Assembly: GCA_963677925.2 (NCBI GenBank) | Contig: CAXXYH010000004.1 | Span: 672,001 to 736,000 of the forward strand | Reading direction: 5' to 3' | DNA from: Spirochaetia bacterium | Lineage (GTDB): Bacteria > Spirochaetota > Spirochaetia > UBA9216 | Length of the DNA stretch: 64,000 nt | Shown: piece after piece, positions 54,810-64,000 of the stretch | Numbering within the stretch: position 1 is the first letter of the stretch | Layout of the letters: every line of letters starts with the position of its first letter | Notes under the pieces: generated by a model | The model's database searches: none | Told to the model about the DNA's origin: nothing | What the model saw: the letters and a program-made list of their open reading frames with translations, nothing else | Position numbers and translations under genes: made by a program

Positions 54810-55925
54810 TCAGTAGGTTTTCTCCAGCCAGGCAAGATAACCTGCGCTGATTTTTTCTGCAGTCTCTCCAGTGACCTGTTCGAAGGCTGAATGAAGTACC
54901 GGCTGCAGAATTGATTCCGAATCTTCAGATTTAGCCCGATCGAAGAAATCCTCACCGGCACAGGCTTCAAGTATTTTACGGTGTACATCATCACCCCAGG
55001 TTTCCGCCATATATTTCACTATCAGCGCCGAAATACCGTAAAAACATGATATTTCCTTCTCGTCTGTCATGGAGGCCATGTCAATACTCTCAAGCTTTGC
55101 GATATTCCAGGCTGCATCAGAACGTGAAAGCCTGCCGCTTTTTATAAAATCACCTCCGAACACTGCACCGTTGCCGTAGTGGACAGCAAGACCTTCAGCG
55201 TACCAGCCTGCCAGATAGTTTCTGCTTATTTTCAGTGTAATGTGATGAACAATTTCATGCCTTATTGTTCCCTCATACGGAGGAATTGCGGGATGACCGG
55301 TCCAGATTTTCAGTGACTCATTTGCCTCTCCCCAGGCGGTGAACTGCCGTTCGATTATAGGGTATGTTCGCTGTCTAAGCAGTTCTCTGTCGGTATACAG
55401 CTTCACCGGAAAGTTCTCATCAACACCGGTGCCGAACAGATCCGATAATATTTCATTTGAATTTATAAGGTACCTTTCAAATGACTGCAGGTTATTTTCA
55501 TTCCCCCTGTAAAAGATTCTGAATCCGTCAATATCATGTCTTAAAAAATCCAGATCACAGTCCAGCCATCTGCCGTCCTGATAACGGTAGACAATGTTAT
55601 AGTTAAAGTCAAAGTTTTCACCGGCATATATGTGTTTCTGATTGATGTGCACAATTACAGTTCTGCTGTCAATCTGCTCGACCCCGGTAATATTAAAGGA
55701 CAGGTTTTGAAAATCATTATTGGCCATATACCAGAACCAGGCATAGCTTTCATTGCGGTAGTAGCTGTCTTCGGTGCTCAGCGTGGACATGTATAAATCT
55801 GAATCGGAGGTATTGATTGCTGTAATTTTATCATTCCATGATTCAGTAAGCTTTTCTTCCACCGAAACACAGGAAAAAAATATTGCCGTCAGAAAAACGA
55901 TTACTGTAAAAAATTTCTTTTTCAT
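54810..55925 (-). CDS. Lipoprotein zinc metallopeptidase (gluzincin, peptidase MA-like)
   Basis: FFSC lipobox; HEIVH...WYAEGLA. Confidence 0.78.
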   Translation of the reverse strand: MKKKFFTVIVFLTAIFFSCVSVEEKLTESWNDKITAINTSDSDLYMSTLSTEDSYYRNESYAWFWYMANNDFQNLSFNITGVEQIDSRTVIVHINQKHIYAGENFDFNYNIVYRYQDGRWLDCDLDFLRHDIDGFRIFYRGNENNLQSFERYLINSNEILSDLFGTGVDENFPVKLYTDRELLRQRTYPIIERQFTAWGEANESLKIWTGHPAIPPYEGTIRHEIVHHITLKISRNYLAGWYAEGLAVHYGNGAVFGGDFIKSGRLSRSDAAWNIAKLESIDMASMTDEKEISCFYGISALIVKYMAETWGDDVHRKILEACAGEDFFDRAKSEDSESILQPVLHSAFEQVTGETAEKISAGYLAWLEKTY

Positions 55926-55975: not shown

Positions 55976-56251
55976 TTGTTCGAGATTAATGAGCTGCTTA
56001 ATATTATCATTGACATCGTAAGTTTTTCGTTTCTGCTTATTGCCGGTTCAAAGGTGAATTTTCAGCGTTTTAAGCTCATTATTCTTGCAGTTATCTTTGT
56101 TGTCCTCAGCCATACCGCGACTGTTGTGGAGGGCTTTTTACTTCCAAATTTTTTTAATGTCCTTGAACACTTATTTTTGTTGTCCGCGATGATAACTCTG
56201 CTCTTCGCTGTCTCAAGAATTGCCTTTAAAGGTGAAAGTTCCGGTGCCTGA
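55976..56251 (+). CDS. Small 3-TM membrane protein
   Basis: TTG start with SD AGGAG; three hydrophobic helices; stop codon overlaps the kinase GTG start region. Confidence 0.75.
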   Translation: MFEINELLNIIIDIVSFSFLLIAGSKVNFQRFKLIILAVIFVVLSHTATVVEGFLLPNFFNVLEHLFLLSAMITLLFAVSRIAFKGESSGA

Positions 56252-57197
56252 TATCATTATAATAATTAATGCAGCAGGAATTCTTGCAGGTTTTGCAGGT
56301 ATTTTTCTGATTATAAAAGCGATATTCAGAAAGCGTTTTGTCTGGCAGAGCGGTATTTTTCTTCTGATTCCTGTCCTTGTTCTCATCTTTGTATTTACGG
56401 CAAATGTTTTTGAATATGAGCAGCTATATATCAATATGGATCAGTATGAGGAGTATCTTGAACTGATGATAATTCCTGCTCTTCTTATTTTTCTGTATTC
56501 GCTTGTTACAGAGGAGGAGCTGAAAGAAAAAGTGAAACGTGAGCAGGAACTTGAAAGAATGGTTAAGGAACGAAATCTGTTCATTCAGGAACTGCAGCAC
56601 CGTATAAAAAATAATCTTCAGCTTATAAGCAGTTTTATTAATCTTCAGATTGGTAATTCTGATGAACGTGAAATTATGGATGCACTGGGAGCGGCAGTTA
56701 ATAGAATTGATTCACTTGGTGTTGTGCAGAATGTACTCTACGACATAGATGATTTTTCAAATATCAGGATAGAGTCATGTTTCGGTGAGGTTATAAGAAA
56801 TCTTGTCGGATATTTTGAAATTGATACCCGAGAGACACTTGTTGAGCTCTCTGATAAGGGTATAACTGCCGCGATGGATGCTGTTGTGTCATGCTGTGTC
56901 ATAATTAATGAACTTGTAAGCAATATCTTCCGGCATGTTAAAAGTCATGTTAAGAGATGTGTCATAAAAATTGATGTAGATCGGAGTTCTGACGGTATGC
57001 TTATCTTCAGGCTTTCCGACAATGGGCCTGGATTAAGTGAGAATATCAGCTTTGGGAAGACTCCGGGCCTTGGCCTTTTAATAGTTGATGTTGTGACTCA
57101 GCAGATAGGCGGAACTGTTGAGATAATCAGGGGCCGCGGGACGGAATTCCGTTTTAAAATCCCTGCAGAAGCAAAAAAAGTTATTGAAAAAAATTAA
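56244..57197 (+). CDS. Sensor histidine kinase (3-TM sensor, HisKA_2, HATPase)
   Basis: ELQHRIKNNLQ, NELVSN, DNGPG, GLGL; in-frame GTG at 56244 preferred. Confidence 0.9.
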   Translation: MPDIIIIINAAGILAGFAGIFLIIKAIFRKRFVWQSGIFLLIPVLVLIFVFTANVFEYEQLYINMDQYEEYLELMIIPALLIFLYSLVTEEELKEKVKREQELERMVKERNLFIQELQHRIKNNLQLISSFINLQIGNSDEREIMDALGAAVNRIDSLGVVQNVLYDIDDFSNIRIESCFGEVIRNLVGYFEIDTRETLVELSDKGITAAMDAVVSCCVIINELVSNIFRHVKSHVKRCVIKIDVDRSSDGMLIFRLSDNGPGLSENISFGKTPGLGLLIVDVVTQQIGGTVEIIRGRGTEFRFKIPAEAKKVIEKN

Positions 57198-57250: not shown

Positions 57251-57919
57251 ATGAAAAAATATATTCCTGTGATTTTACTTTTCCTTGTTATCTTTTCATG
57301 TGCCGCTGATGAATCGGCATCCAATACTGAGGCTGACGGTTATATTAAAAACGGTCTGAGATATGTAGAGATTCCTGAAAAAAGCAATCAAATTCAGTTG
57401 AAAGTATACAGGGGGGATTATGTTGTTTTTCAGCCCTCTGAAAGCGATTCCGCTGTACTGAGTATTCCGGACCTGGATATAAGTGAGACTGTTTATAAAT
57501 CATCTGATGACGCAGCCTATATTAAAATGAAAAGCGCCGGTGAGTTTGAATTTACCATCGGGGGTAAAAAGGGCACTGTTACAGTTACAGAATTTGAAGC
57601 TGAAAGCTATAAGGCTGTTTCAGCGGAAGATGCATATAATCTGATTAAGTCGGCAGATCCCGTTATTCTTGATGTGAGAACCCAGGGTGAATACGACAGC
57701 GGGCATCTGGAAGGTGCGGTTCTGATTCCGGTTCAGGTGCTCGAACAGAATATGTCAGTGCTGGAACAGTTTAAAGATGAGAATGTCCTTGTTTACTGTG
57801 CGTCCGGAAACCGAAGTACTGTGGCTTCAAAGCTGCTTCTTGAAGCAGGATTCTCGCGTCTGTATAACATGCGCTACGGTATTAGGGAGTGGCTGCAGAA
57901 GGGCTATCCGGTAGAATAA
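57251..57919 (+). CDS. Rhodanese-domain lipoprotein
   Basis: IFSC lipobox; LDVRT..EY..GHLEGA, YCASGNRS; extra beta-rich N-terminal domain. Confidence 0.88.
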   Translation: MKKYIPVILLFLVIFSCAADESASNTEADGYIKNGLRYVEIPEKSNQIQLKVYRGDYVVFQPSESDSAVLSIPDLDISETVYKSSDDAAYIKMKSAGEFEFTIGGKKGTVTVTEFEAESYKAVSAEDAYNLIKSADPVILDVRTQGEYDSGHLEGAVLIPVQVLEQNMSVLEQFKDENVLVYCASGNRSTVASKLLLEAGFSRLYNMRYGIREWLQKGYPVE

Positions 57920-57930
57920 TCCATCTGCGC

Positions 57931-59223
57931 TTATTTGCAGGTCATTATATCGAGAATGAGTTTATCAGTTTCAGCCATTCCCTGTGACGCGATCACCGCC
58001 AGGTTTTTAATGGTCTTTTCGATGTCCTTCTCGATTATGCCTTCATACTCGGTTACATAGAGATTATGCACTGCAAGGATAGCTGACTGCATTGCTGCGC
58101 TTACAGAGGTTGATACCTTAAGCGCACAGCCGGCTTTTGCTCCGTCGCAAATCATTCCCGCAATATTGCCAATCATGTTCTTGATGGTGTGCTTGACGCA
58201 GTTGGCATCGCCGCCCATCAGAAAAACTACGCCGGCACTGGCTCCTGTTGCCGCTGAGACAGCTCCGCAGAATGCCGAAAGCCGGTCCATGAAGGTTTTC
58301 AGGTGTATTGCTACCAGATTTCCCATAAGCAGAGCTCTTTCAGTTTTTTCCCTGGAAGCTCCCAGCTTTCCTGCAACCGCGGTAATGGGAACAGAAACTG
58401 TGATTCCCTGATTGCCGCTCCCAGAGTTGCTCATGACAGGCATCATACTTCCGGCCATTCTGGCGTCAGAAGCAGCTGCGGCGCGTGACATTGCATAGGT
58501 GGTTATGTCCTGCTTGATTATGTCTTTGTCGATGCAGTGGACAACGGTCTTTCCCACCTGCAGCCCGTAGCTTCCTTTCAGTCCTTCATCGGCAATTGCA
58601 TCGTTAAGAGCTGCTCCGTCAAAAATAAACTGAACTGCCGGACGGATTTTTTCCAGATCGCAGGCTGATGCGAATTCGAATATTTCTTCCACCGTTGTAA
58701 GTACTTCATCATGGGCTTCGGTGAATTTCTGAAGTTCGGCTGTGTTGTCTAGGATGATGTTTTTATCAGCTGCCATGTAGATAAAATTTGTGTGGTGTCC
58801 GGCAATGATGACAGAGGCCTTGTGTTCTCCGGCAAGTGCGACTGCCTCTATGTACAGCTTTTCAGGTGTATCCTTTTTATGGATTGTTACGAAATCTTTG
58901 AATACAAGCTGCTTTGCCTGCTCAACTATGGGTGCTGAAATACTTTTAAGCACTTCAAGCTCTGCATTTGCATCTCCGCCTATTGCTCCCAGGGCTGCTG
59001 CAATATGAAGTCCGACAGTATCTGTGCCGGGGATCCCGACACCCATTCCGTTTTTGATGATATTACCGCTTGCATAGATATCAATTTTTTCAGGCTTTTT
59101 TTTCAGCAGTTCGGCGGCCTTCGCTGAAGCTAGAGCGACTGCAATTGGTTCGGTGCATCCGAGTGCCGGTTTTACTTCCTTCTGAAGAAGTCCTATAAGT
59201 ATGTCGGTTTTATTGCTGTTCAT
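57931..59223 (-). CDS. cyuA: L-cysteine desulfidase (CyuA/YhaM family)
   Basis: PALGCTEP, KNGMGVGIPG, SDARM, NSGSGNQG, LSAFCG, GMICDGAKAGCALK. Confidence 0.9.
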   Translation of the reverse strand: MNSNKTDILIGLLQKEVKPALGCTEPIAVALASAKAAELLKKKPEKIDIYASGNIIKNGMGVGIPGTDTVGLHIAAALGAIGGDANAELEVLKSISAPIVEQAKQLVFKDFVTIHKKDTPEKLYIEAVALAGEHKASVIIAGHHTNFIYMAADKNIILDNTAELQKFTEAHDEVLTTVEEIFEFASACDLEKIRPAVQFIFDGAALNDAIADEGLKGSYGLQVGKTVVHCIDKDIIKQDITTYAMSRAAAASDARMAGSMMPVMSNSGSGNQGITVSVPITAVAGKLGASREKTERALLMGNLVAIHLKTFMDRLSAFCGAVSAATGASAGVVFLMGGDANCVKHTIKNMIGNIAGMICDGAKAGCALKVSTSVSAAMQSAILAVHNLYVTEYEGIIEKDIEKTIKNLAVIASQGMAETDKLILDIMTCK

Positions 59224-59284: not shown

Positions 59285-59319
59285 AAAAAAGGAACATCCG
59301 GACCTCTGCCGGATGTTCC
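59285..59319 (-). terminator. Intrinsic terminator of the NMT1 ABC operon
   Basis: GGAACATCCGG-N7-CCGGATGTTCC stem with a T-tract on the minus strand; a second hairpin lies at 59368-59386. Confidence 0.85.
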
Positions 59320-59416: not shown

Positions 59417-60517
59417 CTAGTCGAGTTTGTATACAAGAACCAGACCTGATCTCTGGAATACCTGAGCAACTTCAATAAGATCCATACCGCCTGCATTTGC
59501 CGCGATAAGGTTTGAAACCCATGTTACACCGAAGTCAACCTGACCGGTGTAAACAGCGGTTGTTTCACCGATGTCGCCGCCGCCGGGAATTACAGTTACA
59601 TCAAGGCCGACTTCGCTGTAGTAGCCCTTGTCGAGTGCAACGTAGTAACCCATGAACTGCGCCTGGGGAAGCCATTTAAGCTGAATACTTACTTCTGTTT
59701 TTTCCGGGCTGAATGTTCCGTCGGAAGCCATTGCTGCTTCCCAGTATGAGCTGTCTGCAAGATCATCTGCTGAAAGCTCTGCAAGAGCTTCAGCCGCTAC
59801 AGAGTCATCGAGTTTGATGTATGTTTTTGCAAGTTCAAGAGTCTGTGCAAGCGCAGAGTCAACAATCTTTCCGTAGTCAGTTACAGTTGCGCCTGAAGTA
59901 TCGGTTTCAACCAGTTTCTTAACTTCTGATGCCATGTAAGCCTGGTGTTCGGCTGAAACTGAAGATCCGTAGTTGAAAACGATTTCAGCTGCTTCTTCAA
60001 CATTGTTCACCGCATATTCCCAGCCCTTCATTGATGCGTAGATAAATGCTTTTACTGTTTCAGGGTTTGCTGCTGCGAACTCTGCGGTTGTGAAGATGTT
60101 GTCTTCAAGCATTGCAACACCTTCATCATTCATGTCGATGTATGAAACCGTATCTCCGTATCCGTAACCGCCTGCATAGCTGTTTTTTACAAGACCAAGT
60201 TCATTGTAGGTCATTGCTGATGCAAGAAGGATTGAATCGTCATCAAATCCGTCCATATCAAAAGCCTGGCTGAGATATGTAGTAGGCTGACCGTACTTTG
60301 AAAGCAGTGCCTGGATTTCGTATTCGTTACCAAGACCCCAGTTACCAACCTGGCCCTTGCCGGCTGCGTCTACAACGATGCTTTCAACTGATGCATCTGC
60401 TGAATAATAGGAGCTTCCCTCTTCAGATTCCTGGCTTCCTGAAGCGAAGAGCGGTGATGCGGCCATTACGCTGATTAAGAGTAAAGACCCGATTGTAAGT
60501 AAATTAAACCTTTTCAT
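59417..60517 (-). CDS. NMT1/THI5-family ABC substrate-binding protein, apparently circularly permuted
   Basis: The segment LKWLPQAQFMGYYVALDKGYY..VGLDV, normally N-terminal, sits at the C-terminus; GNWGLGNEYE, AMTYNE and ASMKGWEY come first. Confidence 0.85.
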   Translation of the reverse strand: MKRFNLLTIGSLLLISVMAASPLFASGSQESEEGSSYYSADASVESIVVDAAGKGQVGNWGLGNEYEIQALLSKYGQPTTYLSQAFDMDGFDDDSILLASAMTYNELGLVKNSYAGGYGYGDTVSYIDMNDEGVAMLEDNIFTTAEFAAANPETVKAFIYASMKGWEYAVNNVEEAAEIVFNYGSSVSAEHQAYMASEVKKLVETDTSGATVTDYGKIVDSALAQTLELAKTYIKLDDSVAAEALAELSADDLADSSYWEAAMASDGTFSPEKTEVSIQLKWLPQAQFMGYYVALDKGYYSEVGLDVTVIPGGGDIGETTAVYTGQVDFGVTWVSNLIAANAGGMDLIEVAQVFQRSGLVLVYKLD

Positions 60518-60571
60518 GTAAATCCTCCGTCATGAATAGTTGGGTTTATTATTTCAGTTGAAAAACTCCAG

Positions 60572-61381
60572 TTACCGGCGTCCTTTCAACAAAATATTCT
60601 CAAGAAGCAGCAGCAGAATATACATGGTTACACCAATGCCGAATGCTGCCGTTATATACGCCCATGCTGTTGAGTACTGGGCAAGAACTATGTTTTCACG
60701 AATCTGCCTTCCTACACCGATGATGTATTCGGCAAAGTATTCGCTGACCATAGCACTGATAATACTTCCGGGAACGCTTACCCGGAGTGCTGTAAAAATA
60801 TAGGGAACACTGTTGGGGACCCTCAGTTTAAGAAAGATAGTCATCCTGTTTGCTGCAATTGAATGCATCAGGTCCTCTGAAAAAGGCTTGAGTTCAGAAA
60901 ATCCCCTGAAGGCATTGATGCTCATCGCCACTGTACAGGTAATCATTACAACAAGCATCTTGGCCAGCATGCTGCGGATGTTGGGATCCCGGCTGAAGTC
61001 CTTTGTCAGATTGGTCATGATAGGGGCTATAGCGATGATCGGGATGGCATTGAAAGCTGATACGATTGTGAGTCCGCCGGCGCCCCACTTGGGGAAGGCT
61101 GTTGCAATGATTGCAAGCAGGTATCCGAGAACCGAGCCCATCAGCAGTCCGCCAAGTGCGACAGTTACTGTAGCCTTAACATTTTTAAGGATAGAACCGG
61201 TGTTGTCTGCAATGATGTTTGCGATTCGTCCGGGCAGGGGGAGTGTAAAAGTATCTGCCCCGATTATCTTGTGCAGGGCCTGGGTCTGCCAGAGCATTAT
61301 TACGAATATTCCGAATGCTACCGGAAAGAAGATGGACGTAAACCTGTCCTTGTTGAATTTCAGTGTATTATTTCTGCTCAT
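60572..61381 (-). CDS. ABC transporter permease (SsuC/TauC class)
   Basis: AIPIIAIAP, KLRVPNSVPYIFTALRV, MVSEYF. Confidence 0.92.
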   Translation of the reverse strand: MSRNNTLKFNKDRFTSIFFPVAFGIFVIMLWQTQALHKIIGADTFTLPLPGRIANIIADNTGSILKNVKATVTVALGGLLMGSVLGYLLAIIATAFPKWGAGGLTIVSAFNAIPIIAIAPIMTNLTKDFSRDPNIRSMLAKMLVVMITCTVAMSINAFRGFSELKPFSEDLMHSIAANRMTIFLKLRVPNSVPYIFTALRVSVPGSIISAMVSEYFAEYIIGVGRQIRENIVLAQYSTAWAYITAAFGIGVTMYILLLLLENILLKGRR

Positions 61382-61393
61382 ATGACTTTCCTG

Positions 61394-62206
61394 TTAACCT
61401 GCTGTTCTTTTGCCCGGCGATACTATTTTTTCAAGCAGCGACATAAGCTGATAACTGAGTATTCCGATTATTGCGCTTACAAACACTATCTGCCAGAAGA
61501 CATAGATGCTCATAGCGTGTTTAAGCGATTGTGAAAGCATTGTTCCCAGTCCGCCGCCGCCCTGAAGCGTATCGACAAGGATTGATGCGGTGATTGCAAA
61601 GGGCGCAGCAATTTTCAGTCCTGTAAAAAAGTATGGAAGACAGGACGGCAGCAGCAGCTTGGTGTAAATGTGAATCTGAGACGCTGCTATAGAGTGCATG
61701 AGTTCGTGCTTTTCCTTTTCAACAGCCTTCAATCCGGCAAGTGTATTGGTAGCTACGGGATAGAATGTCAGTATTGCTGCAATTACAATCCGGCTTTTAT
61801 CAATATCCTTTGTAATTGCAAGTACAATCGGAGCCATACCCAGAATCGGGATCATCTGGATCATCATCAGGTACGGGAATGCTGTCTTTTCAATCGGAAC
61901 AAACATTCTCATTAAAAGCGCCAGGGTAAATCCCACAGCAATTCCAATAAGAAAGCCGATTCCTGCACGGTAAAGGGTGATGCCTGCGTTGCTCATTACC
62001 AGCTGCAGGGCTGTCTGCTTGTTTGCCACCATCGCTGAACTGAAAACCGATTCAATTATCTGATAAAGGTGGGGGAGTACATTCTCGGGAGTTCTTTTTG
62101 AGCCCGCGATGAACGTGGCTCCGATTTCCCAGAGACCTACAAGACCGAGTCCCCATACAAGTGTTACAAGCTTACTCTGATGTTTTGATTGTTTTACGCC
62201 AGCCAC
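61394..62206 (-). CDS. ABC transporter permease (SsuC/TauC class)
   Basis: QMIPILGMAP, TFYPV, KLLLPSCLPYFFTGLK; GTG start with SD GAGGGAG. Confidence 0.92.
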   Translation of the reverse strand: MAGVKQSKHQSKLVTLVWGLGLVGLWEIGATFIAGSKRTPENVLPHLYQIIESVFSSAMVANKQTALQLVMSNAGITLYRAGIGFLIGIAVGFTLALLMRMFVPIEKTAFPYLMMIQMIPILGMAPIVLAITKDIDKSRIVIAAILTFYPVATNTLAGLKAVEKEKHELMHSIAASQIHIYTKLLLPSCLPYFFTGLKIAAPFAITASILVDTLQGGGGLGTMLSQSLKHAMSIYVFWQIVFVSAIIGILSYQLMSLLEKIVSPGKRTAG

Positions 62207-62208
62207 TG

Positions 62209-62988
62209 TCAGACTCCCTCAAAACTGTGGCGGACTTTGGTTACAAGTTTCGCAAACTCAGGATTATCCTTGGAGTCAAGGCTTCTGGGTCTGGGGATAT
62301 CAATATCAACTACAGCGGAAACCCTGCCGGGGTGGGGTGAGAGAACTACAACCCTGTCCGATAGGAATACTGATTCCTGAATATTATGAGTAACAAAGAG
62401 TATGGTCTTGTTTGTCTTCTGCCAGATTCTCAGGAGATCCATGTGCAGCTTTTCTTTTGTGAATTCATCAAGTGCGGAAAAGGGTTCGTCCATAAGAAGT
62501 ATTTCCGGATCAATGGCAAGCGCACGTGCAATTCCTACTCTCTGCTGCATTCCTCCGCTGAGCTGGTGGGGATATTTGTCGCCGAATTCGGTAAGCCCAA
62601 CAAGTTCAAGTGTTTCTTCAATTCTTCGATGTCGTTCTGCCTTTGGGATGCCAATAACCTCCATGGGCATGGAAATATTTTTTCTGACAGTCCTCCATTC
62701 AAAAAGAACCGGACTCTGAAAGACAAAACCATATTTCTGGCGCTGTCGAACTTCACTTGGCGTCATTCCCTTAACGGAGATGATTCCTGAACTTGGTGGC
62801 TGAAGATCTGCTATTGCGCGAAGCAGGGTTGTTTTGCCGCAGCCCGAAGGGCCTACAAGAGAGACAAACTGTCCCTCTTTAATGTCAAGATTAATGTCGG
62901 TAAGCGCGTGTACCTCGCCGGTTCCGTCCTGGTCAGGAAAAGTAACACATAATCCTAATATTTTAATTTCTGTATCATTAGTCTGCAT
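62209..62988 (-). CDS. ABC transporter ATP-binding protein (SsuB/TauB class)
   Basis: GPSGCGKT, LSGGMQQR, LLMDEPFSALD, VTH; ATG at 62988 preferred over TTG at 63000. Confidence 0.95.
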   Translation of the reverse strand: MQTNDTEIKILGLCVTFPDQDGTGEVHALTDINLDIKEGQFVSLVGPSGCGKTTLLRAIADLQPPSSGIISVKGMTPSEVRQRQKYGFVFQSPVLFEWRTVRKNISMPMEVIGIPKAERHRRIEETLELVGLTEFGDKYPHQLSGGMQQRVGIARALAIDPEILLMDEPFSALDEFTKEKLHMDLLRIWQKTNKTILFVTHNIQESVFLSDRVVVLSPHPGRVSAVVDIDIPRPRSLDSKDNPEFAKLVTKVRHSFEGV

Positions 62989-62999
62989 ATGGGGATACA

Positions 63000-63017
63000 A
63001 TGCAAATTACATGCCAA
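63000..63017 (-). promoter_or_regulatory. Sigma-54 (-24/-12) promoter
   Basis: Minus strand TTGGCATGTAATTTGCAT: GG-N10-GC, close to consensus. Confidence 0.8.
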
Positions 63018-63141
63018 AAAAACCTGACTTCTGTAGTAAGGATGAAATTCGCTGTGTTTAATGAAAAATATTGTAGTAATCGTGACGATTAAGTGTGATT
63101 TCGAAGGGAAATATGATTTTTAACAAAAATGTAAAAAACAA

Positions 63142-63207: not shown

Positions 63208-64000
63208 TTATTTGAAAATGATTGTGTGATTGTTTGAAACAAAAACCCTGTCGTCGAAAACCATTTCCATTGCCTTTGCAAGAACAGCTTTTTCAACATC
63301 GCGCCCTGCCCGTGCCAGAGCTTCAGCATTCTGCTTGTGTGTAATGTTGATGACATTCTGCTCAATTATCGGCCCGTCGTCGAGATCCTGATTCACAAAG
63401 TGGGCTGTTGCCCCGATAATCTTGACTCCGCGCTCATATGCCTGCCGGTAGGGATTTGCCCCTATGAATGCCGGAAGGAAGGAATGGTGGATGTTGATAA
63501 TCTGATCAAGGTAATGATCTGTGAATGATGAAGAAAGGATTCTCATATATTTTGCAAGTACAATATATTCCGGACTGTACTGATCAATAATGTTTATGAT
63601 CTTTCTTTCATGTTCTTCCCTGCTGATGTTTTCATGGCTGATGTAATGATAGGGAACGCCCATCTTTTCGGTAAACTCTCTGAGTGAATCATAGTTGCTG
63701 ATTACAGCCAGGATGTTTGCATTGATATTGTTGAAAAAGTGTCTGACAAGAATATCTCCAAGGCAGTGATGTTCCTTTGTTGCCATAACAATGATATTCT
63801 TTTTTCTTTTTCCATGAAGTTTAATGTCCGCTTCTTCACCGAGTGCTTCTTTAAGATCGTCGTACATGACTCCGGAATCAAAGGTTCCGTTAAACTCTGT
63901 TCTCATGAAAAAGCGTGAAGCCTCGCTGTCGGTATACTGATCGCTTTCAACAACATTGACATTATGATTCAGCAGAATATGAGTAATATCATGTACCAGT
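63208..64000 (-). CDS. purU: Formyltetrahydrofolate deformylase (5' end outside the window)
   Basis: FFMRTEF, KEHHCLGD, LAKYMRIL, INIHHSFLPAFIGANPYRQAYERGVKIIGATAH, LDDGPII; frame is open to the window edge. Confidence 0.95.
   Translation of the reverse strand, partial: LVHDITHILLNHNVNVVESDQYTDSEASRFFMRTEFNGTFDSGVMYDDLKEALGEEADIKLHGKRKKNIIVMATKEHHCLGDILVRHFFNNINANILAVISNYDSLREFTEKMGVPYHYISHENISREEHERKIINIIDQYSPEYIVLAKYMRILSSSFTDHYLDQIINIHHSFLPAFIGANPYRQAYERGVKIIGATAHFVNQDLDDGPIIEQNVINITHKQNAEALARAGRDVEKAVLAKAMEMVFDDRVFVSNNHTIIFK

Follow-up and report, generated by a model that had tools for sequence, protein, structure and literature searches.

A natural circular permutant of the NMT1/THI5 substrate-binding protein family that can be traced in sequence

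Circular permutation is already known in other families of ABC binding proteins. OpuAC of Bacillus subtilis (2b4l/2b4m), a glycine-betaine binding protein, is reported as a circular permutant of ProX-type proteins (CPSARST paper, PMC2395249). Tp0684 (MglB-2) of Treponema pallidum is a circularly permuted ‘Type Ic / Cluster Bc’ glucose-binding protein with homologues in spirochaetes and Gram-positive bacteria (PMC4990184). These known permutants (OpuAC/ProX and TpMglB-2) are old events, and they have mostly been seen in structures only. Here, we describe a permuted substrate-binding protein (SBP) of the NMT1/THI5/ThiY family (PF09084). What is new is a member of this family whose permutation can be traced in sequence; among the matches listed in a search of the open-access literature, there was no description of a circularly permuted NMT1 protein.

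The protein shares with OpuAC a type II binding-protein fold, and the chain order of OpuAC matches that of our structural model. The two nevertheless belong to different families (12–14% identity) and differ in ligand class, as far as the likely ligand of our protein goes, and the OpuAC permutation is ancient and was found by structure alone, whereas the NMT1 event is visible in sequence. Tp0684 is likewise a natural permutant of an ABC binding protein, in which the first strands of the N-lobe have moved to the C-terminus. As described in PMC4990184, however, its fold is Type I (cluster B) and not the type II of NMT1 proteins, its permutation adds a fourth hinge crossing where our protein is cut at the hinge, and its permuted part is poorly similar to canonical proteins, whereas both parts of our protein align well. 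The closest relatives are the canonical NMT1/THI5/ThiY proteins (solved examples are 4nmy and 3ix1), with which it shares sequence homology and ABC partners of the NitT/TauT type. It differs from them in carrying their N-terminal ~90 residues at its C-terminus and in beginning at lobe 2.

The gene lies at 59417..60517 of the 64-kb stretch of DNA that we analysed (the window), on the minus strand, as do all the features given below. The open reading frame is intact and encodes 366 amino acids, from an ATG start to a stop codon at 59417-59419, and by reading of the sequence a Shine-Dalgarno-like GGAGG (60524-60528) sits six bases 5′ of the ATG. Sequence reading and comparison with the family give a signal-peptide-like N-terminus of about residues 1–25 (MKRFNLLTIGSLLLISVMAASPLFA; 60443..60517), with a putative cleavage site near residue 25. 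After a short acidic/Ser linker, the block of conserved homology begins at about residues 37–42 (YYSADASVESIVVDAAGKGQVGNW). A first-pass annotation, made from the DNA sequence alone, had correctly described the reading frame, the Shine-Dalgarno site and the signal peptide as intact, but its start of the mature protein near residue 53 is too late. Since the signal-peptide-like segment contains no cysteine, the SBP of the window is probably soluble in the periplasm rather than anchored as a lipoprotein.

Three kinds of alignment give the same picture of the segment order. The Pfam NMT1 profile (PF09084) matches the protein with 93 bits (gathering cut-off 20.5; E 3.2e-26) in two stretches, and the better of these pairs residues 286–364 with profile positions 2–80 of 216, so that the start of the family profile falls at the end of the protein. 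The colinear arrangement with the profile, in which the N-terminal LxW..Q.QF block comes first, is absent, whereas a canonical relative matches PF09084 in a single colinear stretch (3–216 of 216). In phmmer searches against the PDB, the relatives 4nmy, 3ix1, THI5 and THI13 were found with E values of 5e-18 to 1e-4. The best of them, 4nmy_A (E 5e-18), aligns in two pieces, query 275–342 with chain 7–73 and query 139–200 with chain 194–259; ThiY (3ix1_A) does the same, query 276–355 with chain 5–84 and query 120–181 with chain 171–233. Alignment to a canonical relative from genome G024 pairs canonical residues 44–133 with query 275–364 and canonical 136–348 with query 42–266. This places the cut between canonical residues 133 and 136, with about eight residues (267–274) joining the old termini.

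The swapped order is thus confirmed as a real rearrangement, and the earlier reading of the gene as a natural circular permutant, with two local matches in swapped order, a cut just after the first hinge strand and a short linker between the old termini, is borne out: two segments homologous to the family stand in rotated order and together cover the whole domain. From the alignments, segment A comprises about residues 41–266 (59720..60397) and corresponds to canonical NMT1 from about residue 136 to the C-terminus; in the predicted secondary structure it contains lobe 2, then the strand that returns to lobe 1, and the C-terminal helices. The linker of the old C- and N-termini, GTFSPEKT, takes up about residues 267–274 (59696..59719), of which G267, E272 and K273 are conserved across the permuted clade. 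Segment B, residues 275–366 (59420..59695), corresponds to the canonical N-terminal part, about 44–133, and contains predicted strands and helices of lobe 1, the last element being the first hinge strand, LVLVYK.

An AlphaFold2 model built with canonical rows, which were aligned to segment A only, reached a mean pLDDT of 94.6 and a pTM of 0.92, and its strands alternate with helices in two blocks. With rows of the permuted clade only, AlphaFold gave a pLDDT of 64.9 and left lobe 2 unresolved, and that model was discarded. The retained model is, as predicted, a normal two-lobed alpha/beta binding protein. Each of its top matches in searches that depend on chain order is either a type II binding protein or a LysR effector domain, and the best is OpuAC (2b4l; Z 11.1–11.2, rmsd 4.7–4.9 Å, 211 residues over model residues 1–316; Foldseek E 3.7e-5), with later matches at Z 9.0 or below. 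No solved structure of the NMT1 family appears among the top 50 order-dependent matches. Because both programs used, Foldseek and VIA-align, depend on the order of the chain, this is no argument against homology. In the predicted fold, the chain would begin in lobe 2 and cross once into lobe 1 through the return strand and the C-terminal helices; it would then pass through the eight-residue linker, where the ancestral termini are joined, into the ancestral N-terminal part of lobe 1, and stop two to three residues past the first hinge strand. The permuted protein is accordingly modelled, and expected, to have only one covalent crossing between the lobes.

The protein is not the single case as which it was first treated. 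It belongs to a large and highly conserved permuted clade that is common to hundreds of bacterial species. The best 120 homologues are 68–99% identical over 89–100% of the query and have the same order, which answers the earlier proposal to look for such relatives. Among GTDB contigs, with one genome per species, a relative is encoded at 397 of 431 pattern matches; in each of the 80 loci that we kept, the query is spanned from residue 45 or earlier to residue 363 or later. A search of the ESM Atlas returned only clusters of NMT1-type ABC binding proteins. At least 83 of the 120 family members carry a lipobox-like motif. The idea that the permutation moves the tether point to the other lobe does not apply to the cysteine-free SBP of the window; in the lipobox-bearing members, the anchor would attach via lobe 2.

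The SBP gene closes an ABC importer cassette. Immediately 5′ of it, also on the minus strand, lie the genes of permease B (BPD_transp_1, 269 aa; 60572..61381), permease A (BPD_transp_1, 270 aa; 61394..62206) and the ATPase (ABC_tran, 263 aa; 62209..63000), partners of the NitT/TauT type, so that the transporter operon is as complete as the first-pass annotation had stated. A terminator-like hairpin with an 11-bp stem followed by a T-run (59291..59319), about 100 nt 3′ of the SBP stop codon, is likely to mark the end of the four-gene unit. The promoter-like site 5′ of the ATPase gene (63070..63099) is a consensus match only, of a kind no commoner in the region than in shuffled sequence, and a search for RNA evidence of expression listed no data set that carries the gene. 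The four genes occur in the same order in 76 of the 80 loci, and the remaining four are cut by contig ends.

The wider neighbourhood suggests what the cassette is for. Across the 80 loci, clustering of the neighbouring genes yields an amidohydrolase of the dihydropyrimidinase type (72 loci), a PreA-like DHO_dh + 4Fe-4S protein (71), a class-III aminotransferase and an Fe-ADH-like protein (62 each), an M20 amidase (56) and a PucR regulator (48). In Anaerocolumna xylanovorans (locus L036), the neighbours score above the NCBIfam cut-offs as dihydropyrimidinase (479.9 versus 393), PreA (566 versus 335) and hydantoinase/carbamoylase amidase (379 versus 204). Strict anaerobes have a reductive pyrimidine cluster, PydAc/B/C/D/E, with a ferredoxin-dependent PydAc (PMC7332683). 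As in the clostridial cluster described there, the neighbours include a PreA-like FMN/4Fe-4S protein that lacks an FAD domain, a dihydropyrimidinase, an M20 carbamoyl-amidase, a class-III aminotransferase and an Fe-ADH-type reductase. Judged by gene set, the four-gene cassette sits inside this clostridial reductive pyrimidine-degradation (Pyd) cluster in most genomes. In contrast to our loci, the passages of PMC7332683 that were searched describe no embedded cassette or permuted SBP, and the words ‘transport’, ‘permease’ and ‘ABC transporter’ do not occur in them. The window itself departs from the common arrangement: its cassette has a gene for a PurU-like formyltransferase on one side and one of the SDH_alpha family on the other, with no adjoining Pyd genes, and the nearest Pyd-like genes of the same genome are on contig C3, 41–60% identical to the cluster representatives.

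Because the cassette and its canonical sisters sit in the Pyd cluster, the ligand is likely to be uracil, thymine or a close derivative from their catabolism, as far as can be told from gene context, and ThiY is a pyrimidine-binding protein according to the title of 3ix1. The neighbouring genes do not allow uracil or thymine to be told apart from dihydropyrimidines, hydantoins, N-carbamoyl-beta-alanine or beta-alanine. A search for Rfam families at the gathering score found none in the 64-kb window or in nine related loci, and so gave no riboswitch clue to the ligand. The SBP would then deliver a pyrimidine base to a heterodimer of the two permeases (PermA/PermB). The matches listed in our open-access literature search contained no description of a uracil/thymine ABC importer of the Pyd type.

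The canonical relatives allow the origin of the permutation to be approached. In a script-called survey of segment order, the best 150 cluster representatives (at 50% identity) from 8638 matches comprise 113 of canonical order (B-A), 28 single-piece fragments, six A-B and three tandem (B-A-B-A) proteins. As only one of the six A-B representatives is full length (P0121), the permuted form appears as one tight clade. Separate trees of the A and B parts, from quick searches without bootstraps and with only 95 columns in the B alignment, place the 20 permuted rows in a single clade (SH-aLRT 100 in the A tree and 97 in the B tree), and in both trees this clade falls within one and the same set of seven canonical rows (support 94 for A and 91 for B). 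Because both trees give a single clade within the same seven relatives, one gene was permuted once. To the canonical relative P0125, the B part is 57% and the A part 50% identical. The canonical sisters share both the ATPase-permA-permB-SBP layout and the Pyd context, and their operon position is the same in at least six loci (L107, L108, L110, L112, L113 and L117).

We propose that the permutation arose once, in an ancestor of canonical order that already served a two-permease ABC cassette within the Pyd cluster, and that the whole cassette later spread between Bacillota and Spirochaetota. Tandem duplication, fusion and trimming would be the most likely route to the permuted form. The search for tandem-duplicated intermediates that had been suggested earlier yielded no close one. 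The three B-A-B-A proteins (P0152, P0171 and P0226) are 23–38% identical to the query parts and do not lie near the permuted clade; among proteins of 642–2000 aa there were three matches and no B-A-B-A relative, which is weak evidence; and none of the canonical sister loci examined has two adjacent SBP genes.

The same sisters provide a reference for the effect of the rearrangement. The two divergent permeases, to which the first-pass annotation had tied the permutant, are no feature of it, as the canonical sisters carry the same two-permease layout. We compared identities in 10 permuted and 7 canonical cassettes, values that are not phylogeny-corrected. In the permuted group, the SBP is more conserved (A part 74.6%, B part 80.6%) than its own ATPase (68.1%), and in the canonical sisters the reverse holds (SBP 60–61%, ATPase 72.4%). 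In the same set, the permeases are 45–48% identical between the groups versus 63–68% within the permuted group, whereas the ATPase, at 67.3% between the groups, does not separate them. That the permeases diverge and the ATPase does not is a suggestive hint, at the level of sequence, that docking may be altered.

Several other explanations deserve consideration. That the swapped order is an artefact of misassembly, of a frameshift or pseudogene, or of a wrong ORF call, we regard as effectively refuted and of negligible probability. Judged by a near-identical locus (L026), the window comes from a metagenome-assembled genome, where misjoins are possible, but the same order is found in the 80 kept loci of independent assemblies, among them the complete genomes of the cultured strains Lacrimispora sinapis JR3 and Anaerocolumna sp. 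AGMB13025. Misassembly had been named at the outset as something to exclude, and Logan contigs from two runs, which belong to two studies, run through the gene unbroken and without joints. The contig from the second study, with 67 differences over ~1.4 kb, covers the whole gene, and those checked by hand (59549 to 59588) fall at third codon positions. Many columns are, moreover, invariant across 58 aligned members. We also think it very improbable that the gene is a chimera in which the last two thirds of one NMT1 paralogue were joined to the first third of another, unrelated NMT1 gene. The slightly closer relationship of the B part to canonical relatives (57% versus 50% for the A part, to P0125) would fit such an origin, as would the difference in nearest canonical rows (P0125 for A, P0131 and P0134 for B). 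Yet both trees nest the permuted clade in the same seven sisters, these sisters agree with that clade in operon position and Pyd context, and the cut at canonical residues 133/136 is seamless; a fusion of very recent tandem copies would be indistinguishable from the duplication route to permutation. A similar idea has been suggested for part of T. pallidum MglB-2.

Given a single permutation of one gene, its function could still be other than we propose. Salvage of the thiamine pyrimidine (HMP/FAMP) in the manner of ThiXYZ, or a THI5-like HMP-P synthase activity, would replace the catabolic importer, which we find improbable. The best-characterised solved relatives are indeed the FAMP-binding ThiY and THI5/THI13, UniRef names some members “Thiamine pyrimidine synthase”, and the window cassette is not beside Pyd genes. 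The signal-peptide-like N-terminus, the lipoboxes of homologues and the ABC operon nevertheless misfit a THI5-type enzyme, which is cytoplasmic and has no transporter. There is also no TPP riboswitch or other Rfam match in the window or the nine related loci, and it is a dihydropyrimidinase-type gene that recurs in 72 of 80 loci, with no conserved thiamine cluster emerging from the neighbour clustering. For the pyrimidine importer that we favor, we give serious weight, only a little short of an even chance, to the permutation being neutral, with ligand, docking and dynamics as in the canonical sisters and no adaptive change at the hinge or in docking. The shared operon position, two-permease layout and Pyd context are in line with this, and eight residues of lobe 2 (W60, Q84, Y104, N105, E106, D139, W166 and Q192) are conserved in at least 90% of 104 permuted and canonical rows. 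The stronger conservation of the permuted SBP relative to its ATPase, reversed in the sisters, and the splitting of both permeases but not the ATPase speak against neutrality, although with 10 and 7 cassettes and no correction for phylogeny they are suggestive only.

We therefore hold it very probable that the gene encodes a functional, secreted SBP of the NitT/TauT type, that its chain is a genuine circular permutation within the NMT1/THI5/ThiY family, with a single origin, and that its cassette has Pyd ancestry and most likely a pyrimidine ligand. Distinctly more speculative, and on present indications unlikely as a whole, is a ‘nicked-hinge’ Venus-flytrap, in which the cut in the first of two hinge strands would leave a single covalent crossing between the lobes, with the lipid anchor on the opposite lobe in Gram-positives. 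Mechanics and docking geometry would then have changed so far as to drive co-adaptation of both permeases but not the ATPase, and to place the SBP under unusually strong constraint, above that on its own ATPase.

For the annotation of this family, colinear profile methods cover only part of the permuted proteins, which go under the name “thiamine pyrimidine synthase” in some databases. A conserved place in the Pyd cluster points to a uracil/thymine ABC importer in anaerobes, including gut-associated Clostridia. The permutation event itself can be traced in sequence, because canonical sisters such as P0125 and those of L107-type loci are still 50–57% identical, and the monophyletic clade and its extant sisters share the same pathway context. 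As these sisters work in the same operon position and the same pathway, the permuted and canonical proteins would, if our reading is true, form a natural experiment on how chain connectivity relates to SBP dynamics and transporter coupling. The pair would offer a clean system in which the rewiring of the hinge may be set against ligand binding, open–closed dynamics and permease docking.

The gene for the substrate-binding protein (SBP; 59417-60517, minus strand) is intact: its 366 codons open with ATG, a GGAGG lies six bases 5' of the start, and the N-terminus passes from a basic start through a hydrophobic core to ...PLFA/SGSQ, in line with the first-pass annotation, which had called ORF, ribosome-binding site and signal peptide intact. 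It had also taken the transporter operon to be complete, and the SBP gene indeed closes a minus-strand series of four, after those for an ABC ATPase (62209-63000), permease A (61394-62206) and permease B (60572-61381). A promoter-like site (63099-63070) and a terminator-like hairpin after the SBP gene (59319-59291), both on the minus strand, are consensus matches only.

Upstream of this cassette, a Formyl_trans_N protein resembling the formyltetrahydrofolate deformylase PurU (63208-63906, minus strand) is encoded; its ORF gives 232 aa from the listed ATG, and a longer open frame reaches the window end. A 20-pair, AT-rich terminator-like hairpin (63185-63142, minus strand), again a consensus match only, follows it. 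Downstream, past the hairpin after the SBP gene, lies the gene for a 430-aa SDH_alpha-family protein (PF03313, E 3e-60; 57931-59223, minus strand), which is not conserved beside the cassette in other genomes, except in the near-identical locus L026. Farther away, 56220-57197 (plus strand) encodes a histidine kinase (HisKA_2/HATPase_c) whose N-terminus looks membrane-like; the ORFs listed around it include no response regulator. Behind it, 57251-57919 (plus strand) encodes a secreted-looking protein that carries a rhodanese domain at its C-terminus. A 371-aa protein (54810-55925, minus strand), for which Pfam gives nothing at E ≤ 1e-5, has a signal- or lipoprotein-like N-terminus (...FFSC) and an HEIVHH motif; it is perhaps secreted and metalloprotease-like, of a kind not yet characterised.

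The SBP matches the Pfam NMT1 profile (PF09084) with 93 bits (cut-off 20.5), split into two stretches; the better one lies C-terminally, where residues 286-364 correspond to profile positions 2-80 of 216. A phmmer search against all PDB sequences gave six distinct relatives at E ≤ 1, and the swap is directly visible in two of them: in 4nmy_A, chain residues 7-73 match SBP 275-342 and 194-259 match SBP 139-200, and in ThiY (3ix1_A), 5-84 match SBP 276-355 and 171-233 match SBP 120-181. Both searches agree with the swapped block order first read from the sequence, which is present in this gene far beyond chance.

For comparison we used a 348-aa canonical protein from another genome (G024), which has one colinear NMT1 match (3-216 of 216). 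SBP residues 42-266 align to its residues 136-348, the last being its final residue (segment A), and SBP residues 275-364 to its residues 44-133 (segment B); the canonical order is B-A and the permuted order A-B. The cut is seamless: the SBP ends in ...RSGLVLVYKLD where the canonical protein has ...DSPLLLVSKKS, and the canonical sequence after the cut, AGIESAADLAGKRIGSW, is found as ASVESIVVDAAGKGQVGNW near the N-terminus of the SBP. The short linker proposed between the old termini measures about eight residues in this alignment (267-274, GTFSPEKT), of which G267, E272 and K273 are conserved within the permuted clade, and a strand of the LVLVYK type lies within a few residues of the C-terminal end in all 120 close homologues.

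That the order is a product of misassembly is excluded by widespread same-order homologues (a search for which had been suggested as a check) and by unbroken contigs from two studies. A word-indexed protein search with the SBP scored 7998 candidates, of which 3952 reached E ≤ 0.001; the top 120 of these are 68-99% identical over 89-100% of the query, are 361-414 aa long and have named sources that include Spirochaetales, Sphaerochaetaceae, Candidatus Moduliflexus, Anaerocolumna, Mobilitalea and Herbinix. In a one-genome-per-species collection, a relative is encoded in 397 of 431 pattern matches, and the 80 loci kept of these (69 Bacillota, 6 Spirochaetota, 5 unlabelled) include complete genomes of cultured strains. 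Logan contigs from two runs of two studies cover the gene unbroken and without a joint: one, perhaps the source of the window, is identical to it, and the other shows 67 differences. Separate maximum-likelihood trees of segments A and B rule out a fusion of unrelated genes. They were built from 20 permuted and 76 canonical rows chosen for good coverage of both segments; 18 of the 114 candidates had segments too short to be kept. The tree search was quick in both cases, branch support is by SH-aLRT alone, and the alignment for B is just 95 columns long. The permuted rows form one clade in each (SH-aLRT 100 for A, 97 for B), enclosed by the same seven canonical rows (P0125, P0131, P0134, the G024 protein, P0132, P0163 and P0137; support 94 and 91). 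Because the enclosing rows are shared, both halves have one ancestry in these trees, which identify a permutation of one gene with a single origin.

An exhaustive HMMER search of 1.84 billion cluster representatives gave 8638 matches at E ≤ 0.001. When segments A (residues 50-265) and B (270-366) were located in the best 150 of these, 113 rows had the canonical arrangement, 28 were fragments with one segment only, 3 were B-A-B-A tandems and 6 were A-B, only P0121 among the last being full length. The closest canonical protein among the best 150, P0125, shows 57% identity in segment B and 50% in segment A. Of 399 genomes scored in a sample of one class, 13 matched it at E ≤ 1e-30: 12 with the A piece only, as expected of the permuted form, and one, G024, colinearly. 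The A-then-B order was verified in G001, G002, G003 and G336. The permutation would have come about when tandem copies were fused and then trimmed, the original signal peptide being retained. No duplicated intermediate was found near the clade among the best 150 representatives, longer proteins and canonical sister loci. B-A-B-A tandems do occur elsewhere in the NMT1 family, so the raw material for such a route exists in nature: P0152 (629 aa, named as an archaeon MAG), P0226 (649 aa) and P0171 (2077 aa), whose segments are about 23-38% identical to the query parts and not close to the permuted clade.

The order ATPase, permease A, permease B, SBP holds in 76 of the 80 related loci, the other four being truncated by contig ends. 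Clustering of the flanking ORFs gave neighbour counts that are floors, given short contigs and shadow ORFs picked in some high-GC loci: an amidohydrolase in at least 72 of the 80, a DHO_dh protein with a 4Fe-4S dicluster in at least 71, a class-III aminotransferase and an Fe-ADH-like protein in at least 62 each, an M20 amidase in at least 56 and a PucR-family regulator in at least 48. They typically run PucR, aminotransferase, ADH, the cassette, amidohydrolase, PreA-like, M20. At the L036 locus of Anaerocolumna xylanovorans, NCBIfam models identify three of these neighbours above their cut-offs, as dihydropyrimidinase (TIGR02033, 479.9 against 393), PreA (NF006183, 566 against 335) and hydantoinase/carbamoylase-family amidase (TIGR01879, 379 against 204). 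By their family assignments, the neighbours are the reductive pyrimidine degradation (Pyd) gene set of strict anaerobes, PydAc, PydB, PydC, PydD and PydE, as given in PMC7332683, in the searched text of which neither 'transport' nor 'permease' occurs. We infer that the ligand is uracil or thymine, or, less likely, a dihydropyrimidine or other pathway intermediate. Among the permuted metagenome cassettes (L121-L186) that lie within full Pyd clusters, many have record titles naming gut metagenomes; gut-associated Clostridia thus seem often to carry the putative importer of uracil or thymine.

A metagenome scan with P0125 yielded 80 loci, 66 permuted and 14 canonical. In six of the 14 (L107, L108, L110, L112, L113 and L117), genes of dihydropyrimidinase and PreA type come immediately after ATPase, both permeases and SBP; in L116 an amidohydrolase lies upstream, and no Pyd gene was seen downstream in L114 (12.6 kb). 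Another six of the 14 are contigs below 5.4 kb. At the G024 locus, PucR, amidohydrolase, ATPase and two permeases accompany the canonical SBP, and an M20 gene and one for an OYE-type flavoprotein are close by. Since canonical sisters with two permeases occur in Pyd clusters, the permutation arose inside an existing Pyd-linked two-permease transporter, and on this comparison it does not account for the two divergent permeases. In lobe 2, residues W60, Q84, Y104, N105, E106, D139, W166 and Q192 show at least 90% conservation over all 104 rows, permuted and canonical alike, consistent with an unchanged ligand class.

In the window's own genome (5.04 Mb, four contigs; window at C4:672001-736000) the cassette does not adjoin Pyd genes, being flanked by the PurU-like and SDH_alpha-family genes. 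A dihydropyrimidinase-like gene (C3:289581-290972, 58% identity to the L002 protein) and an M20 gene (C3:1925754-1927013, 50% identical) are encoded elsewhere. About 4 kb apart lie a PreA-like gene (C3:351085-352278, 60% identity to the cluster representative) and a class-III aminotransferase gene (C3:356592-357923, 59% identity to the Pyd-cluster representative); C3:351085-357923 may be a partial Pyd locus detached from the transporter. The genome has one permuted SBP copy and, by tblastn at E ≤ 1e-8, no canonical paralogue. Cassette proteins of Spirochaetota and Bacillota are 65-85% identical, which we read as probable horizontal transfer of the whole cassette.

AlphaFold2 with the shallow permuted-clade alignment alone performed poorly (pLDDT 64.9). 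With 64 canonical proteins added, which MAFFT placed on segment A only (checked), residues 51-366 were modelled with mean pLDDT 94.6 and pTM 0.92. The predicted fold is two-lobed; by the model's DSSP string (protein number = model number + 50), a beta-alpha block, lobe 2 (56-128), is followed by a strand (139-144) and an extended helical stretch (145-264); after the linker, another block of beta-alpha type (275-352) leads to a final strand (359-364). The lobes would be joined by a single covalent crossing, because the new termini sit at the canonical first crossing. Among order-dependent structural matches, structures of OpuAC from Bacillus subtilis rank first, both in Foldseek (E 3.7e-5) and in VIA-align (Z 11.1-11.2 and rmsd 4.7-4.9 A for 211 aligned residues, spanning model 1-316), with Z ≤ 9.0 for every other family. 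Despite clear sequence homology, the top 50 matches include no solved structure of the NMT1 family; order-dependent alignment is expected to miss such structures, and their absence does not speak against homology. Circular-permutation relations among glycine-betaine binding proteins, including 2B4L, 1R9L and 1SW1, are described in the CPSARST paper (PMC2395249); by this and the ordered OpuAC match, the NMT1 clade has reached an OpuAC-like chain order independently.

The first-pass annotation had proposed a moved tether point that could alter docking to the permeases. A lipobox-like motif (regular expression) occurs in at least 83 of the 120 members; the window protein, whose N-terminus has no Cys at all, and 36 others lack it. 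The idea thus fails for the window protein and could matter only in Gram-positive members. Ten permuted and seven canonical cassettes, small samples uncorrected for kinship, gave mean pairwise identities within permuted, within canonical and between types of 68.1%, 72.4% and 67.3% for the ATPase; 68.4%, 57.6% and 48.0% for permease A; 62.6%, 53.5% and 45.3% for permease B; 74.6%, 60.3% and 55.5% for SBP segment A; and 80.6%, 61.0% and 57.0% for segment B. Cassette type separates the permeases and the SBP, not the ATPase. In permuted cassettes the SBP (75-81%) is more conserved than its own ATPase (68%), the reverse of the canonical sisters (60-61% against 72%). This pattern fits a co-adapted SBP-permease interface under tighter constraint after permutation.

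Naturally permuted ABC binding proteins are known already from OpuAC and ProX (PMC2395249) and from Treponema pallidum MglB-2, whose fold is type I and for which 'Type Ic/Cluster Bc' was proposed (PMC4990184). In the literature covered, which takes in few subscription journals, we found no permuted NMT1/ThiY-type protein and no Pyd-cluster ABC importer described. The main interest of the event is that it is recent enough to allow a direct comparison of the permuted proteins with canonical sisters of the same pathway.
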